Positions 2,073 through 9,475 of a stretch of DNA of 64,000 bases are shown here, piece after piece. Numbering within the stretch: the stretch's first letter is position 1; every line of letters starts with the position of its first letter. Made by a program: the position numbers and the translations under genes. Source of the stretch: Escherichia coli. Lineage in GTDB: Bacteria > Pseudomonadota > Gammaproteobacteria > Enterobacterales > Enterobacteriaceae. The notes under the pieces are model-generated. The model did no database searches, was not told the origin of the DNA, and saw nothing but the letters and a program-made list of their open reading frames with translations. The stretch lies in the NCBI RefSeq assembly GCF_016026235.1, contig NZ_CP065613.1. One strand, 5' to 3'.

Positions 2073-2330
<258 letters not shown>

Positions 2331-2525
2331 TTAGCTCGAGCTTCGTATGGGGTATTGGCGCCTCGTCAGGCTTTACAGCCCGGTCATCGCAGTTCTATGT
2401 GAACTCTCGATTGCCAGGCCCAAATGCCAAACCCGAGATTCTCAAAGGTGGCGTAGTATACGCTGACTCAGCGATGTGCTCAAGTCCCGAACAGACAAAG
2501 ATCCCGAAGGATCGCGCATAGCGGG

Positions 2526-3200
2526 TTAAATCCAGCCGCGTTCGGCAAAAGAAACATACTCTCCACGCCCAATCACGATATGGTCGAGCACGCGTAAATC
2601 CATGAACTGACAACTCTTTATTATCCGTTCAGTAATGAGTTTATCCGCTTTACTGGGTTCAGCGCAACCCGAAGGGTGATTATGTGCAAGGATCAGCGCC
2701 GAGGCGTTTATTTTTATCGCTTCGCGGATAATTTCCCGAGGATGGACTTCAACATGGTTTAGCGTGCCGGAAAAAAGACGGCTATGCGTTATAACCCGGT
2801 GTTGGGAGTCGAGAAAGATCACCATAAAGATCTCCCGCTCCTCACCCGTGAGCTGGCTTTGTAAAAATTCCCTCGTCATCTCCGGGCTGAGTAAAGGGCT
2901 TTCTTCACGCATCCGCACGTTGTAGTAACGCCGCGCCAGTTCAGCAATCCCCTTTAACTGGGCAAATTTCGCCACGCCAATTCCATGAACGCCACTAAAT
3001 TGTTCATATTCAGAGGTTAACAAGCCATAAAGAGAGCCGAAATTCTCCAGCATCTCTTTTGCCAGGGTTAATACATCTTTACCGCGCGTTCCGGTACGCA
3101 GAAATAGCGCCAGCAGCTCGACATCCGTTAAGGCGCTAATACCAAACTTCAGCATTTTTTCGCGCGGCATCAACAGCTGTGAATTGTTTTTCACCTTCAC
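2526..3200 (-). CDS. yicR: UPF0758/RadC-like JAB-domain protein YicR
   Basis: 224-aa ORF with helix-hairpin-helix N-terminus and JAMM-like HNHPSG motif; the true start may be a few codons downstream of the listed one. Confidence 0.9.
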
Positions 3201-3365
3201 CTCCTTTGTGGTGCTCGCATCCTGTCATAGCCGTTTCGTTAAATCGACGGCCAGTTTTCAATCCTGGAAAGCGCCTCGCAAAGTGAATCTCAGGTGAAGG
3301 CACGACAACAAAAGTATTGTGATAAAATCGCCAACTTCTGGTGTCACCCTACAGGAAAAATCATC

Positions 3366-4586
3366 ATGAGCCTGGCCGGTAAAAAAATCGTTCTCGGCGT
3401 TAGCGGCGGTATTGCTGCCTATAAAACCCCTGAACTGGTGCGTTGTTTGCGCGATCGCGGGGCCGACGTCCGCGTAGCCATGACCGAAGCGGCAAAAGCC
3501 TTTATCACCCCACTTAGCTTGCAGGCGGTTTCTGGTTATCCCGTTTCCGACAGTCTGCTGGACCCGGCAGCCGAAGCCGCTATGGGCCATATTGAGCTGG
3601 GTAAATGGGCTGATTTAGTGATTCTCGCCCCTGCCACGGCAGATTTGATTGCCCGTGTTGCTGCCGGAATGGCGAATGACCTGGTATCGACGATTTGTCT
3701 GGCTACACCTGCGCCTGTAGCCGTGCTCCCCGCCATGAACCAGCAGATGTACCGTGCCGCTGCCACGCAGCATAATTTAGAGGTGCTTGCTTCCCGTGGT
3801 TTGCTCATCTGGGGGCCAGACAGTGGCAGTCAGGCTTGTGGTGATATCGGTCCTGGGCGAATGCTCGATCCGTTAACCATTGTGGATATGGCGGTAGCGC
3901 ATTTTTCGCCCGTCAACGACCTGAAACATCTGAACATTATGATTACCGCCGGCCCGACGCGTGAACCGCTCGATCCCGTGCGTTATATCTCTAATCACAG
4001 CTCCGGCAAGATGGGTTTTGCTATCGCCGCCGCCGCTGCCCGTCGTGGCGCGAACGTCACGCTGGTATCAGGTCCGGTTTCACTACCAACGCCACCGTTT
4101 GTTAAACGTGTTGATGTGATGACCGCGCTGGAAATGGAAGCCGCCGTGAATGCTTCTGTACAGCAGCAAAATATTTTTATCGGCTGCGCCGCCGTGGCGG
4201 ATTATCGCGCAGCTACCGTGGCCCCAGAGAAAATCAAAAAGCAGGCCACGCAGGGTGATGAATTAACAATAAAAATGGTTAAAAACCCCGATATCGTCGC
4301 AGGCGTTGCCGCACTAAAAGACCATCGACCCTACGTCGTTGGATTTGCCGCCGAAACAAATAATGTGGAAGAATACGCCCGGCAAAAACGTATCCGTAAA
4401 AACCTTGATCTGATCTGCGCGAACGATGTTTCCCAGCCAACTCAAGGATTTAACAGCGACAACAACGCATTACACCTTTTCTGGCAGGACGGAGATAAAG
4501 TCTTACCGCTTGAGCGCAAAGAGCTCCTTGGCCAATTATTACTCGACGAGATCGTGACCCGTTATGATGAAAAAAATCGACGTTAA
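3366..4586 (+). CDS. coaBC: bifunctional phosphopantothenoylcysteine decarboxylase / phosphopantothenate-cysteine ligase
   Basis: ATG at 3366 gives 406 aa [21 protein letters not shown]... (flavoprotein N-domain plus CoaB C-domain); the listed ORF 3294..4586 is an upstream extension. Confidence 0.95.
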
Positions 4587-5022
4587 GATTCTGGACCCGC
4601 GCGTTGGGAAGGAATTTCCGCTCCCGACTTATGCCACCTCTGGCTCTGCCGGACTTGACCTGCGTGCCTGTCTCGACGACGCCGTAGAACTGGCTCCGGG
4701 TGACACTACGCTGGTTCCGACCGGGCTGGCGATTCATATTGCCGATCCTTCACTGGCGGCAATGATGCTGCCGCGCTCCGGATTGGGACATAAGCACGGT
4801 ATCGTGCTTGGTAACCTGGTAGGATTGATCGATTCTGACTATCAGGGCCAGTTGATGATTTCCGTGTGGAACCGTGGTCAGGACAGCTTCACCATTCAAC
4901 CTGGCGAACGCATCGCCCAGATGATTTTTGTTCCGGTAGTACAGGCTGAATTTAATCTGGTGGAAGATTTCGACGCCACCGACCGCGGTGAAGGCGGCTT
5001 TGGTCACTCTGGTCGTCAGTAA
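4564..5022 (+). CDS. dut: dUTP diphosphatase
   Basis: [35 protein letters not shown]...; overlaps the coaBC 3-prime end as in K-12. The start could be the second Met at 4567. Confidence 0.95.
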
Positions 5023-5128
5023 CACATACGCATCCGAATAACGTCATAACATAGCCGCAAACATTTCGTTTGCGGTCATAGCGTGGGTGCCGCCTGGCAA
5101 GTGCTTATTTTCAGGGGTATTTTGTAAC

Positions 5129-5725
5129 ATGGCAGAAAAACAAACTGCGAAAAGGAACCGTCGCGAGGAAATACTTCAGTCTCTGGCGCTGATGCTGGAA
5201 TCCAGCGATGGAAGCCAACGTATCACGACGGCAAAACTGGCCGCCTCTGTCGGCGTTTCCGAAGCGGCACTGTATCGCCACTTCCCCAGTAAGACCCGCA
5301 TGTTCGATAGCCTGATTGAGTTTATCGAAGATAGCCTGATTACTCGCATCAACCTGATTCTGAAAGATGAGAAAGACACCACAGCGCGCCTGCGTCTGAT
5401 TGTGTTGCTGCTTCTCGGTTTTGGTGAGCGTAATCCTGGCCTGACCCGCATCCTCACTGGTCATGCGCTAATGTTTGAACAGGATCGCCTGCAAGGGCGC
5501 ATCAACCAGCTGTTCGAGCGTATTGAAGCGCAGCTGCGCCAGGTATTGCGTGAAAAGAGAATGCGTGAGGGTGAAGGTTACACCACTGATGAAACGCTGC
5601 TGGCAAGCCAGTTGCTGGCATTTTGTGAAGGTATGCTGTCACGCTTTGTCCGCAGCGAGTTTAAATACCGCCCGACGGATGATTTTGACGCCCGCTGGCC
5701 GCTAATTGCCGCGCAGTTGCAGTAA
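5129..5725 (+). CDS. slmA: nucleoid occlusion factor SlmA (TetR family)
   Basis: ATG at 5129 gives 198 aa [52 protein letters not shown]... with a TetR-type HTH. Confidence 0.95.
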
Positions 5726-5739
5726 TTCTCCCCTAAACG

Positions 5740-5772
5740 GTCAGGCAGAAACGTCTGCCTGACGCTTTTCTT
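5740..5772 (+). terminator. slmA rho-independent terminator (hairpin could act bidirectionally toward the convergent RT gene)
   Basis: GTCAGGCAGA-AACG-TCTGCCTGAC perfect 10-bp stem followed by GCTTTTCTT. Confidence 0.5.
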
Positions 5773-6730
5773 ACCCTGCAACCAGCATTCGCTTAACACT
5801 CTCTCTCGCCTGTTGAAAGGCCTCATCCTCAGGGTTGATTTGCAATAACCAGTTTATTCTTCCCTGCAAAGCATAAAGATACGCCGTTGCCTGTGCGTGG
5901 AGATCGCCAGAAGGATCAAGTTCACCACGATGACTAAGATGCGAAATAACGCCATATTTTTGGCACAAGTGTACTTCCTGACGCAGCGCCCGGCGCGCTT
6001 CGCGGGCAAGCTGTGGTTTGTGATTAACAACAATCCCGGTTACTTGCTGGCGCTTACAGGCAGCTATCAGGCAGCTTTTGCGTTGATAGAGGCTCAGGCC
6101 CAGCTCCGCTAACAATCCGCACACTTTATTTTTAACCTGGCGGGCATTGAAGTGACCTGAAAAGGTCATGTCATCGCAGTAGCGGGTGTAGGTAATTCCC
6201 CGAGCCTGACACCATTCCCCTATGCGTTCATCAAAACAGCGCATCACAAGATTGGAAATGGCTGGCGAAGTTGGTGCCCCCTGTGGTAACGCGTCGTTAT
6301 AACAACAAATCCAGGTCAGCATGGTTACCACATTACGTGGCAACTGGACCTGGCGAAACACACGCCAGACCTGTAACCAGCTAATGCTATCGAAAAAGTT
6401 TTCGATATCGAGTTTCAGGATCTGCGGCTGTTGGCAGTGTGGCTGCGCGTTGCTGACGATTGGGCAACCTGGTCGGTAGGCTGTAGCAAAAGGGGAAAGC
6501 GGAAATTGTGAAAGGACGTTCTTAAGAATGTTGCGCTGTACGGTTTTGAGCAAGTAATCAGGGGCTAACACCAGCCGCTGACCACCGTGGCGTTTAGAAA
6601 GAATAATGCGTCGGTAATGGCGTCCGGCATGATTACTGAGCGCATACAACCGCTGTATTTCTTTATCGGCGCTCCAGCCCGGCGAGCCGAACAAATCGAG
6701 CGCCAGAAGGGTTATCCGGGTAGCATCCAT
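5771..6730 (-). CDS. retron-type reverse transcriptase, consistent with retron Ec107
   Basis: RT motifs in the translation: LKLDIENFFDSI, LPQGAPTSPAISN, YTRYCDDMTFSG (YxDD box) and the retron-typical VTG motif (QQVTGIVVN). The internal ATG at 6730 gives 319 aa; the listed ORF begins at an upstream GTG. Lies between slmA and pyrE, where retron Ec107 is reported (recalled, not searched). Confidence 0.9.
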   Translation of the reverse strand: MDATRITLLALDLFGSPGWSADKEIQRLYALSNHAGRHYRRIILSKRHGGQRLVLAPDYLLKTVQRNILKNVLSQFPLSPFATAYRPGCPIVSNAQPHCQQPQILKLDIENFFDSISWLQVWRVFRQVQLPRNVVTMLTWICCYNDALPQGAPTSPAISNLVMRCFDERIGEWCQARGITYTRYCDDMTFSGHFNARQVKNKVCGLLAELGLSLYQRKSCLIAACKRQQVTGIVVNHKPQLAREARRALRQEVHLCQKYGVISHLSHRGELDPSGDLHAQATAYLYALQGRINWLLQINPEDEAFQQARESVKRMLVAG

Positions 6731-6763
6731 TCCACTCTCCACATCACGGCGGCCAAAAGAGGT

Positions 6764-6954
6764 GCCAACAGCGGCAATACCATTAAACCATCCCGAAGGC
6801 GCGTAACTGTACTGAGCGCGTCAGCGCGACGTACGCGAAGCGTACTTAAGTACAATGAAGCGACTTTGGGTATATGGACATACTACTGGCGTTAAGTCGG
6901 CGACTCGCCGACCCTCCCGGCACAAAGGCCGGAAACGCTATTGCCACTGCTGGC
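6764..6954 (-). ncRNA. retron msr-msd non-coding RNA (template for msDNA), bounded by a1/a2 inverted repeats; boundaries approximate
   Basis: Minus-strand a1 GCCAGCAGUGGCAAUA (plus 6939-6954) pairs over 16 nt (including 2 G-U wobbles) with a2 UAUUGCCGCUGUUGGC (plus 6764-6779), which sits 34 nt upstream of the RT ATG. Between them are msr hairpins (GUCGGCGA-G-UCGCCGAC) and a palindrome-dense msd stem (GUACUUAAGUAC, GCGC-UGAC-GCGC). Confidence 0.55.
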
Positions 6955-7025
6955 GAAAGCAGATTAACACGATATCTTAAAGCGCATCACGCTGCGCACA
7001 GTAAAAACTTGCGCAGCGCATATTT

Positions 7026-7667
7026 TTAAACGCCGAACTCTTCGCGATAGGCCTTAACCGCCGCCAGATGTTCCGCCATTTCCGGCTTCTCTTCCAGGTA
7101 GGCAATCAGATCTTTCAGGGTGATGATAGAGATCACTTTGCAGTTGTAATCACGCTCAACTTCCTGAATCGCCGAAATCTCGCCGCGCCCGCGTTCCTGA
7201 CGATCAAGCGAAATCAATACGCCAGCAAGCGTCGCGCCATTGGCCTGAATAATTTCCATCGACTCGCGAATCGCCGTTCCGGCGGTGATCACATCATCCA
7301 CCAGCATTACGCGTCCTTGTAACGCGCTACCGACCAGATTGCCGCCTTCACCGTGGTCTTTTGCCTCTTTGCGGTTAAAGCAGTACGGCAGGTCCAGGTC
7401 ATGATGCTCCGCCAGCGCCACGGCGGTTGTGGTAGCAATCGGGATCCCTTTGTAAGCAGGGCCAAACAGCAGATCGAACTCAATGCCGGAATCCACCAAT
7501 GCTTCAGCGTAAAAACGGCCTAACAGTGCCAGATCGCGCCCGGTATTAAACAGCCCGGCGTTGAAGAAATAGGGGCTTTTGCGCCCGGATTTCAGCGTAA
7601 ACTCACCAAACTTTAATACCTGTTTGCTAAGCGCAAATTCAATAAACTGGCGCTGATATGGTTTCAT
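7026..7667 (-). CDS. pyrE: orotate phosphoribosyltransferase
   Basis: ATG at 7667 gives 213 aa [40 protein letters not shown]... with the PRPP-binding motif [13 protein letters not shown]. Confidence 0.95.
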
Positions 7668-7698
7668 GCCTTCGCTCCTCATCTTACTTTTCTACAGA

Positions 7699-7728
7699 CA
7701 AAAAAAAGGCGACTCATCAGTCGCCTTA
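7699..7728 (-). terminator. pyrE attenuator (intrinsic terminator in the rph-pyrE intercistronic leader)
   Basis: Minus-strand hairpin AAGGCGACUGAUGAGUCGCCUU followed by a U9 run, directly after the rph stop and upstream of pyrE. Confidence 0.6.
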
Positions 7729-7732
7729 AAAA

Positions 7733-8449
7733 TCAGTTTGCCAGCGCCGCCTTCTGCGTCGCTACAATGGATTCGATTCCCCCTCGGGCCAGCGCCAACA
7801 AGGTGAGTAACTCTTCATGGGTGAACGGCTCGCCTTCTGCCGTCCCCTGCACTTCAATGATGCGCCCGTCTTCGGTCATCACTACGTTCATGTCGGTCTC
7901 TGCGGCTGAGTCTTCAACGTATTCCAGATCGCAAACCGCTTCGCCGTTCACAATCCCGACAGAAACCGCGGCTACCATCCCTTTCATTGGATTGGTTTTC
8001 AGCTTGCCGTTTTCCACCAGCTTCTGTAGCGCATCTGCCAGCGCCACACAGGCACCCGTAATCGAAGCGGTACGCGTGCCACCATCAGCCTGAAGCACGT
8101 CGCAGTCCAGCGTAATGGTGAACTCACCCAGCGCTTTCAAATCTACTGCCGCACGAAGAGCACGGGCGATCAGACGCTGGATTTCCATTGTGCGTCCACC
8201 CTGCTTACCTTTCGCTGCTTCACGAGCGTTACGGGTGTGGGTAGAACGTGGCAGCATGCCGTATTCTGCGGTGATCCAGCCCTGGCCCTGACCTTTCAGG
8301 AAGCGAGGCACGCCTTCTTCAATAGAGGCGGTACACAATACTTTGGTATCGCCAAATTCGACCAGCACCGAGCCTTCTGCATGTTTTGTATAGTTACGAG
8401 TCAGGGTAACGGGACGCACCTGATTATTGCTACGGCCTGCTGGACGCAT
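7733..8449 (-). CDS. rph: ribonuclease PH, intact full-length reading frame
   Basis: ATG at 8449 gives 238 aa [41 protein letters not shown]..., read through to the natural C-terminus without the K-12 rph-1 frameshift. Confidence 0.95.
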
Positions 8450-8575
8450 ATTGAAATCTCCGGCTTGAAACAAATGTGGCTGCGCATTATACGGACTTCC
8501 GGCGGTTATTCCTATCCTGACAAGGCATCGATGGCTATAATCCTTCCACCTCTCCTTTTATAAACAGGAACGTCT

Positions 8576-9439: not shown

Positions 9440-9475
9440 CTCGTAACGCCAATTCTTACTTTTCAGCCTTCACAA

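Follow-up and report, generated by a model that had tools for sequence, protein, structure and literature searches.

An Ec107 retron with a conserved msr-msd RNA in the slmA-pyrE spacer of Escherichia coli

Results

A reverse transcriptase gene in place of the slmA-pyrE palindrome

The window analysed here is a stretch of 64,000 nucleotides from Escherichia coli (NZ_CP065613.1), numbered along its plus strand; coordinates written from high to low are read on the minus strand. Its plus strand carries coaBC, dut and slmA; a 319-aa open reading frame, pyrE and rph come next, on the minus strand, and yicC follows. Comparison with MG1655 showed that the 34-bp palindrome of the K-12 slmA-pyrE spacer has given way in the window to an insert of about 1.3 kb (Table 1). 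The MG1655 spacer is a 36-bp sequence (TATGACGCCGGATGACTTTTCATCCGGCGAGTTTCT), of which the window keeps the end bases alone, the rest being replaced. Identity with K-12 stops 1 base past the slmA stop codon and about 3-4 bases past that of pyrE. The insert contains only the 319-aa ORF, which codes for a reverse transcriptase (RT), and a structured non-coding RNA (ncRNA); the ncRNA stretch carries no annotation in RefSeq. As a side observation, rph is intact in the window (7733-8449, a 717-nt CDS, as in the annotation of FDAARGOS_943, the genome with the identical retron), and the MG1655 annotation describes a truncated RNase PH. The rph frameshift of K-12 lowers pyrE expression, and the intact gene bears on any read-through from pyrE into the insert.

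The product of the 319-aa ORF has a YCDD catalytic box, an NAQPH sequence (NAXXH) and a VTG motif, and it matches Pfam RVT_1 with E = 2.4e-20. The best PADLOC model is RT_Ec107-like, matched over its full length with E = 3.8e-131; the next-best models are those of RT_III-A (E = 5.8e-93), and the best 25 PADLOC matches listed are all to retron RT models. The motifs specific to retron RTs are NAXXH (region X) and VTG, together with an xxDD catalytic box (PMC6868368), and the window protein has all three. Moreover, Simon et al. singled out the YCDD box as an unusual trait of RT-Eco5 (Ec107) (PMC6868368).

Retron Ec107 lies in the intergenic region between pyrE and slmA (ttk), where it replaces a palindromic 34-bp sequence and shows no signs of mobility (PMC6868368). 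The insert in the window occupies this very site, has the size of about 1.3 kb and likewise replaces the 34-bp palindrome. Identity of the ncRNA with published Ec107 sequence was checked on two segments (24 + 23 nt) from primers with which Kong et al. engineered this ncRNA: the primer ACTTAACGCCAGTAGTATGTCCAT matches 6895..6872 exactly over 24 nt, and the reverse complement of the primer CAGCGGCAATACCATTAAACCAT matches 6790..6768 exactly over 23 nt (PMC8563936 supplement). Among 5426 complete E. coli genomes, the insert was found in 382, as a single copy and always on the chromosome. Retron Ec107 was reportedly described by Herzer, Inouye and Inouye in 1992.

Table 1. Features of the retron insert and its borders in the window
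Feature	Coordinates	Strand	Basis or remarks
Whole retron Ec107 insert	5727..7022	minus	About 1.3 kb; K-12 slmA-pyrE spacer comparison
Terminator-like hairpin, GTCAGGCAGA-AACG-TCTGCCTGAC followed by GCTTTTCTT	5740..5763	plus	Terminator scan; inside the insert just after slmA
Retron reverse transcriptase RT-Ec107, 319 aa + stop	6730..5771	minus	960-nt CDS in RefSeq
Shine-Dalgarno sequence of the RT gene, GGAG	6740..6737	minus	Sequence
a2, 3' arm of the retron inverted repeat	6779..6764	minus	Sequence (TATTGCCGCTGTTGGC), fold, covariation
Predicted msd template	6781..6887	minus	Ec86 analogy and the name-giving length of 107 nt, which is assumed; ±1 nt at either end
Branched msd stem-loop	6877..6788	minus	Fold and covariation; helices 4-8
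msr hairpin 2, GGGUCGGCG-AGU-CGCCGACUU	6914..6894	minus	Fold; helix 3, 94% paired
msr hairpin 1, UUCCGGC / GCCGGGA	6934..6915	minus	Fold; helix 2
Predicted branching (priming) G of UAGC, directly 3' of a1	6938	minus	Homology
a1, 5' arm of the retron inverted repeat	6954..6939	minus	Sequence (GCCAGCAGTGGCAATA), fold, covariation
Extended -10-like motif TGTTAATCT, putative retron promoter	6969..6961	minus	TG at 6969-6968, hexamer TAATCT at 6966..6961
Hairpin just after the pyrE stop codon (7028..7026)	6990..7019	minus	Arms 7018..7010 / 6998..6990, 11-nt loop

An a1/a2 inverted repeat brackets a conserved RNA upstream of the RT gene

An earlier note, made from the letters of the window, had proposed that two minus-strand segments between pyrE and the RT gene are fully complementary, with two G-U wobbles, and that they show the geometry expected of the a1 and a2 repeats of a retron. 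The two segments indeed form 16 contiguous pairs, 14 of them Watson-Crick and 2 G-U. When read on the minus strand, a2 ends 34 nt from the ATG of the RT gene (6730), with 33 nt intervening, just as the note had placed it. Of 300 dinucleotide shuffles of the 296-nt spacer between pyrE and the RT gene, 2 produced a long-range stem of 16 or more unbroken pairs, with G-U permitted. Folding of the pyrE-RT transcript, which the note had named as a check, also favoured the pairing: the minimum free energy and centroid folds of 6960..6760 both include a1/a2 (-91.3 kcal/mol, z = -5.95, with none of 200 shuffles as stable), and the pairing persists in the fold of the full 7025..6731 (z = -5.07).

Homologues of the RT number in the thousands, and a scan of species-representative genomes gave 80 loci. 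In four enterobacterial homologues (two from Pseudocitrobacter, one each from Budvicia and Yokenella) the sequences of a1 and a2 differ and yet stay complementary. RNAalifold, applied to five enterobacterial sequences, returned 58 pairs, 19 of which showed compensatory change. A covariance model built from those five sequences then detected an RNA directly upstream of the RT gene, on the same strand, at about 60 of the 80 loci, including loci from Lachnospiraceae, Oscillospiraceae and Bacilli. The 43 best matches, which extend from Enterobacterales to gut Firmicutes, were aligned. In this alignment, which was fitted to the structure of the model so that the paired percentages are inflated, and whose cells are not phylogenetically independent, standard pairs occupy 91.4% of the cells, as against 31-44% when the partners are slid by 1-3 columns. 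Both sides have changed at 53 of the 58 pairs, and none of 500 shuffles reached the observed values. For helix 1, which is a1/a2, compensatory change was found at 15 of the 16 pairs, with 94% of the cells paired across the 43 homologues. Thus, the fold, the 15 covarying pairs and the adjacent retron RT bear out the a1/a2 geometry, with the repeats bracketing an msr-msd region immediately upstream of an RT gene on the same strand.

In a scan for terminators, a small local hairpin (UGCCGCUGUUGGCA; 6776..6763, minus strand) was seen within a2, followed by the U-run CCUCUUUUGG. The same arrangement occurs in Pseudocitrobacter, and a U-run directly follows a2 in many of the Firmicute homologues. 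Partial termination at this position, between msd and the RT gene, could result in an excess of the ncRNA over the RT mRNA.

An invariant guanosine and two msr hairpins follow a1

The position directly 3' of a1 is a G in all 42 sequences of the 43-ncRNA alignment that have a base there. It is preceded by A in 41 of the 42 and followed by C in 32 and by U in 8 of the 43. In the window it forms part of UAGC (G6938). The AGC sequence is the conserved priming motif of retrons (PMC6868368), and because an invariant G in an AGC context matches the conserved retron priming guanosine, we predict that G6938 is the branch point. An unpaired G just 5' of a2 (6780), opposite the predicted branching G, is also found in 42 of 42 sequences.

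The two msr-like hairpins that the earlier note had seen between the repeats are present in the fold, conserved and covarying. In msr hairpin 1 (helix 2), both sides have changed at 7 of 7 pairs. No motif of the family is better conserved than GCGAGUCGC, the apex of msr hairpin 2. It takes the form GCGAG[U/C]CGC in 36 of the 43 homologues and is likely to be an element recognised by the RT.

The msd region folds into a branched stem-loop and is selected as DNA

The msd stem-loop has a basal stem, built from CCAU/AUGG, CCC/GGG, AAG/CUU and CGC/GCG, then a GUAC/GUAC helix, and at its apex two hairpins, GUACGC/GCGUAC and GCGC-UGAC-GCGC. Helices 4-8 are 86-98% paired, and both sides have changed at 25 of their 26 pairs. 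The segment that Kong et al. swapped for donor sequence, 6871..6791, falls within this region (PMC8563936). The note had suggested that a cluster of nested palindromes here would form the msDNA stem-loop. The branched stem-loop and its GCGC-UGAC-GCGC hairpin were recovered, and the other element that the note named, the palindrome GUACUUAAGUAC, did not prove to be a structural unit. We rejected it as a hairpin of its own: its first GUAC pairs with a distal GUAC (helix 6), and its second GUAC forms the start of GUACGC/GCGUAC (helix 7). Moreover, only in the allele of this strain is the palindrome perfect; the majority E. coli allele reads GUACCUGAGUAC.

By analogy with Ec86, in which copying passes over one G that faces the branching G, the msDNA would start opposite 6781, and, on the assumption that it has the 107 nt that gave the retron its name, it would correspond to plus-strand 6781 to 6887, with ends that should be good to about 1-2 nt. 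This predicted 107-nt cDNA also folds, as DNA, into a branched stem-loop (-22.6 kcal/mol, z = -3.6).

Whether a stem has to pair as RNA or as cDNA should be visible in its mismatches, since copying into cDNA turns A·C into T·G, a tolerated wobble, and G·U into C·A, a mismatch; A·C is therefore expected over G·U in the msd. We counted the non-Watson-Crick cells in the 43-sequence alignment. Helices 1-3, which are a1/a2 and the msr hairpins, hold 91 G·U and 16 A·C, whereas msd helices 4-7 hold 5 G·U and 27 A·C. The asymmetry between helices 1-3 and helices 4-8 gave p = 4e-9 in Fisher's test, in which the cells counted are not independent. The pattern in the msd is the one expected if its stems must pair as cDNA, and it indicates selection on the cDNA strand. 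The wobble turns from RNA-type to DNA-type between the end of helix 3 (6894) and the start of helix 4 (about 6870), and we predict that the 3' end of the msd lies in this gap. Helix 8 (GCGC-UGAC-GCGC, 6827-6816) differs from the other msd helices in showing an RNA-type wobble (10 G·U against 1 A·C). This hints either that helix 8 matters as part of the RNA template and not of the msDNA, or that its alignment is poor.

These counts bear on the idea that the structured RNA is mainly a regulatory small RNA, or a cis-acting leader for translation of the RT, with reverse transcription being incidental. The RNA is certainly highly structured (z about -6) and lies within the 5' leader of the RT mRNA, and Rfam offers no retron family at this place: none was found in Rfam 15 when 5500..8000 was scanned at permissive E-values, which returned only chance-level matches. 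That blank, however, reflects the content of the library and does not mean that structure is absent. Against a regulatory RNA or leader stand the preference for A·C over G·U in helices 4-7, which points to selection on the cDNA strand, and an architecture that fits the definition of a retron point by point. Furthermore, Ec107 is among the retrons experimentally validated as producers of msDNA (PMC6868368). We consider a mainly regulatory role exceedingly improbable and read the RNA as the primer and template of a retron.

Hairpins and a putative promoter at the borders of the insert

The earlier note had also pointed to a hairpin with a 9-bp stem right after the pyrE stop codon, which might serve both as the pyrE terminator and as promoter context for the retron. 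The 9-bp hairpin is present; it belongs to the retron insert and forms in the fold of 7025..6731. In E. coli ST648, a C to T change in one arm is matched by a G to A change in the other, and in Pseudocitrobacter the arms are CGCTGCGGG/CCCGCAGCG, which are again compensatory. Judged from these sequences, the hairpin exists and is maintained by selection. It has no U-tract on the minus strand, and the terminator scan made no call there, so that a role as a replacement pyrE terminator is plausible and the hairpin is a candidate for it.

For the promoter, a better candidate lies closer to a1. The extended -10-like motif TGTTAATCT ends 6-7 nt before the a1 stem. Pseudocitrobacter (TGCTATGCT) and Yokenella (TATACT) each have a -10-like hexamer some 7 nt ahead of their a1 stem, as does Budvicia (TAGAAT) at a comparable spacing. 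A simple sigma-70 scan upstream of a1 returned no two-hexamer promoter. This motif, rather than the hairpin next to pyrE, is more likely to be the retron promoter. Transcription probably starts at about 6955, which would make G6938 approximately the 18th residue, because C6955 of the majority allele pairs with 6763 and because the -10-like hexamer ends 6 nt upstream.

On the slmA side, the insert carries a second hairpin (5740..5763). It is absent from K-12 and stands in place of the palindrome that slmA and pyrE share there. It is a probable terminator of slmA supplied by the retron.

Could the repeats and hairpins be no more than terminators or attenuators of the convergent operons of pyrE and slmA, standing in for the bidirectional terminator of K-12, with no role as a template for reverse transcription? 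The insert does replace the shared palindromic terminator of K-12; it places one hairpin beside each flanking gene (5740..5763 and 7019..6990), of which the slmA-side one is called as a terminator and the pyrE-side one covaries; and the hairpin and U-run at 6776..6763 are flagged as well. Nevertheless, both flanking hairpins lie outside the interval that the note had flagged, and the covarying a1/a2 and internal helices recur upstream of homologous RT genes in dozens of unrelated contexts that have neither pyrE nor slmA close by. A termination role would also leave unexplained the invariant guanosine of AGC and the DNA-type wobble bias of the msd. We therefore regard structures for termination alone as extremely unlikely, and retain the assignment of the interval to the msr-msd of a retron.

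The allele in the window is a rare one and has kept its core pairing

The allele in the window is a minority variant, with 100% identity to a single complete genome, FDAARGOS_943. Identity to the majority E. coli Ec107 allele is about 97.6% over the ncRNA and about 98.7% over the whole insert. The differences include the loss of 1 nt from the loop of msr hairpin 1 and, in an internal loop of the msd, CUUAAG for CCUGAG; in addition, the majority allele has a 17th a1/a2 pair (C6955 with 6763), which in the window is a C·A mismatch. The substitutions in the window allele fall in loops or keep the pairing, and one of them turns a G·U into a G-C pair in hairpin 2.

Among other E. coli genomes, 2020CK-00188 has an Ec107 RT gene annotated as a pseudogene with an internal stop, next to an ncRNA kept at 95% identity. 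As the RT pseudogene lies beside a retained ncRNA, the retron can therefore decay in place. It could accordingly be asked whether the window also holds a decayed, non-functional copy and its strain makes no msDNA. The rarity of the allele, the C·A mismatch at the 17th a1/a2 position, the deletion in the loop of msr hairpin 1 and the RT pseudogene in at least one E. coli genome would be in keeping with decay. The 319-aa RT ORF, however, is intact, with its YCDD, NAXXH and VTG motifs; all 16 core pairs of a1/a2, the branching G and all helices are kept, and the substitutions are confined to loops or neutral for pairing. A decayed copy is thus very unlikely.

FDAARGOS_943 (NZ_CP065615.1 3793561-3801279) carries an island of about 7.7 kb, with integrase, Icd-like, toprim and DUF927 genes, between yicC and dinD; the window lacks this island (9440-9460), as well as the several IS insertions of FDAARGOS_943, and therefore stems from a strain that is related to it yet distinct. 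In Pseudocitrobacter (two loci, at about 2280-6165; window 4564-8473), an Ec107-like retron occupies exactly the same site, with rph-pyrE, msr-msd-RT and slmA-dut in that order. The flanking proteins of Pseudocitrobacter are 89-96% identical to those of the window, as against 68% for the RT, and the RT stop codon abuts that of slmA, with no spacer hairpin. The Pseudocitrobacter retron suggests either a long residence combined with fast evolution or repeated capture at the terminator site.

No conserved effector gene accompanies the RT

An all-against-all BLASTP comparison of 1126 ORFs from the 80 loci revealed no conserved neighbour that could represent an effector gene. No family of neighbouring ORFs occurs in more than 7 of the 80 loci; beyond the RT itself, only its antisense shadow ORFs do so. 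The pyrE gene beside the retron codes for the housekeeping orotate phosphoribosyltransferase and occupies the same place in K-12, which is free of the retron. Thus, the tripartite organisation of defence retrons, with a conserved effector adjacent or fused to the RT, was not found at these loci. With no conserved effector nearby, the element is therefore an orphan retron and falls outside the typical defence retrons that bear an effector.

Discussion

We conclude that 6955..6764, on the minus strand of the window, is the msr-msd gene of retron Ec107 (Retron-Eco5), for which we propose the mechanism set out below; we estimate the probability of this reading at about 0.96. The locus agrees with Ec107 in species, in its site between pyrE and slmA (ttk), in its size of 1.3 kb, in its 319-aa RT with a YCDD box, in the order msr-msd-RT, in having no accessory gene, and in the ncRNA segments that equal the published primers. 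The element, the ncRNA family and the orphan status were all known before, so that the present work is a correct identification and not a discovery. In a 2026 metagenome survey, an existing covariance model, "Ec107_like", is among those hit most often.

By the mechanism that we propose, the transcript would start at about 6955, just downstream of the extended -10-like motif, and a1 would pair with a2, setting G6938 opposite G6780 and beside the first base of the template. The RT encoded 34 nt downstream would recognise the msr hairpins and prime DNA synthesis from the 2'-OH of G6938, forming a 2'-5' linkage, and would then copy the msd template from about 6781 to about 6887 before stopping. 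Host RNase H would presumably remove the copied template. The product would be a branched RNA-DNA molecule, msDNA-Ec107, in which the 107-nt DNA, derived from the "palindrome-dense" segment, adopts a branched stem-loop fold and remains joined to the 3' end of the msr by a few base pairs. In this scheme, the 2'-5' priming, the exact msDNA ends, the start of transcription and the RNase H step are drawn from the biochemistry known for the family, and what the present comparisons establish is which element the locus is, the a1/a2 pairing, the conservation of the secondary structure, the invariant G and the RNA-type and DNA-type selection on its two halves.

The scheme follows that of Ec86 (Retron-Eco1), with which Ec107 shares the a1/a2 stem, a priming G in UAGC, msr hairpins, an msd stem-loop and an RT gene downstream on the same strand. 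In Ec86 the priming G lies in a UAGC directly 3' of a1, and an unpaired G stands opposite, before a2. Ec86 also carries an effector gene (type II-A), unlike Ec107, which has none. The a1/a2 stem is of 16 bp in Ec107 and of about 12 bp in Ec86, and the msDNA of Ec107 is 107 nt long with a branched stem, as compared with the 86 nt and simple stem of Ec86. The two RTs are only about 24% identical (PMC6868368 supplement); both the AGC motif and the general retron scheme have been described (PMC6868368).

The full-length best match of the RT places the element in the Ec107-like clade (RT clade 2; PMC7736814), of which the window holds the founding member, with no substantive difference. The ncRNA architecture of the clade is common to the homologues from Pseudocitrobacter, Budvicia, Yokenella, Lachnospiraceae, Oscillospiraceae and Bacilli. 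Within RT clade 2, Mestre et al. found no protein associated with the Ec107 branch, doubted a functional link to pyrE, and placed the branch beside RTs that are linked to phosphoribosyltransferases (PRTases) (PMC7736814). This position is mirrored in our analysis by the type III-A retrons, which combine an RT with a PRTase-like effector: their RT models come next-best in PADLOC for the Ec107 RT, yet no PRTase-like effector is conserved beside the Ec107-like RTs. Ec107 was left out of the defence assays of Millman et al.

A retron ncRNA was called correctly from sequence alone, where RefSeq annotation and detection with Rfam 15 fail. The asymmetry between G·U and A·C provides a simple comparative means of locating the RNA/DNA boundary of a retron without experiments.

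Lastly, the Ec107-like retrons form a large clade that reaches from Enterobacterales to gut Firmicutes, and at the pyrE-slmA site common to E. coli and Pseudocitrobacter the RT (68%) has diverged much further than the flanking genes (95-96%). These observations, the strong constraint on the ncRNA, an msDNA selected as DNA and the lack of a conserved effector across all 80 loci together form the basis for a tentative reading, which we ourselves hold to be rather unlikely: that the effector-less Ec107-like clade works otherwise than the abortive-infection retrons, with the msDNA itself or an unlinked host factor as the active component, and that the element may persist in part through the terminators with which it provides the convergent housekeeping operons on its two sides. 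The Ec107-like elements are the main experimentally validated retrons that lack a known effector or function, and the strains that carry them are therefore a natural test bed.
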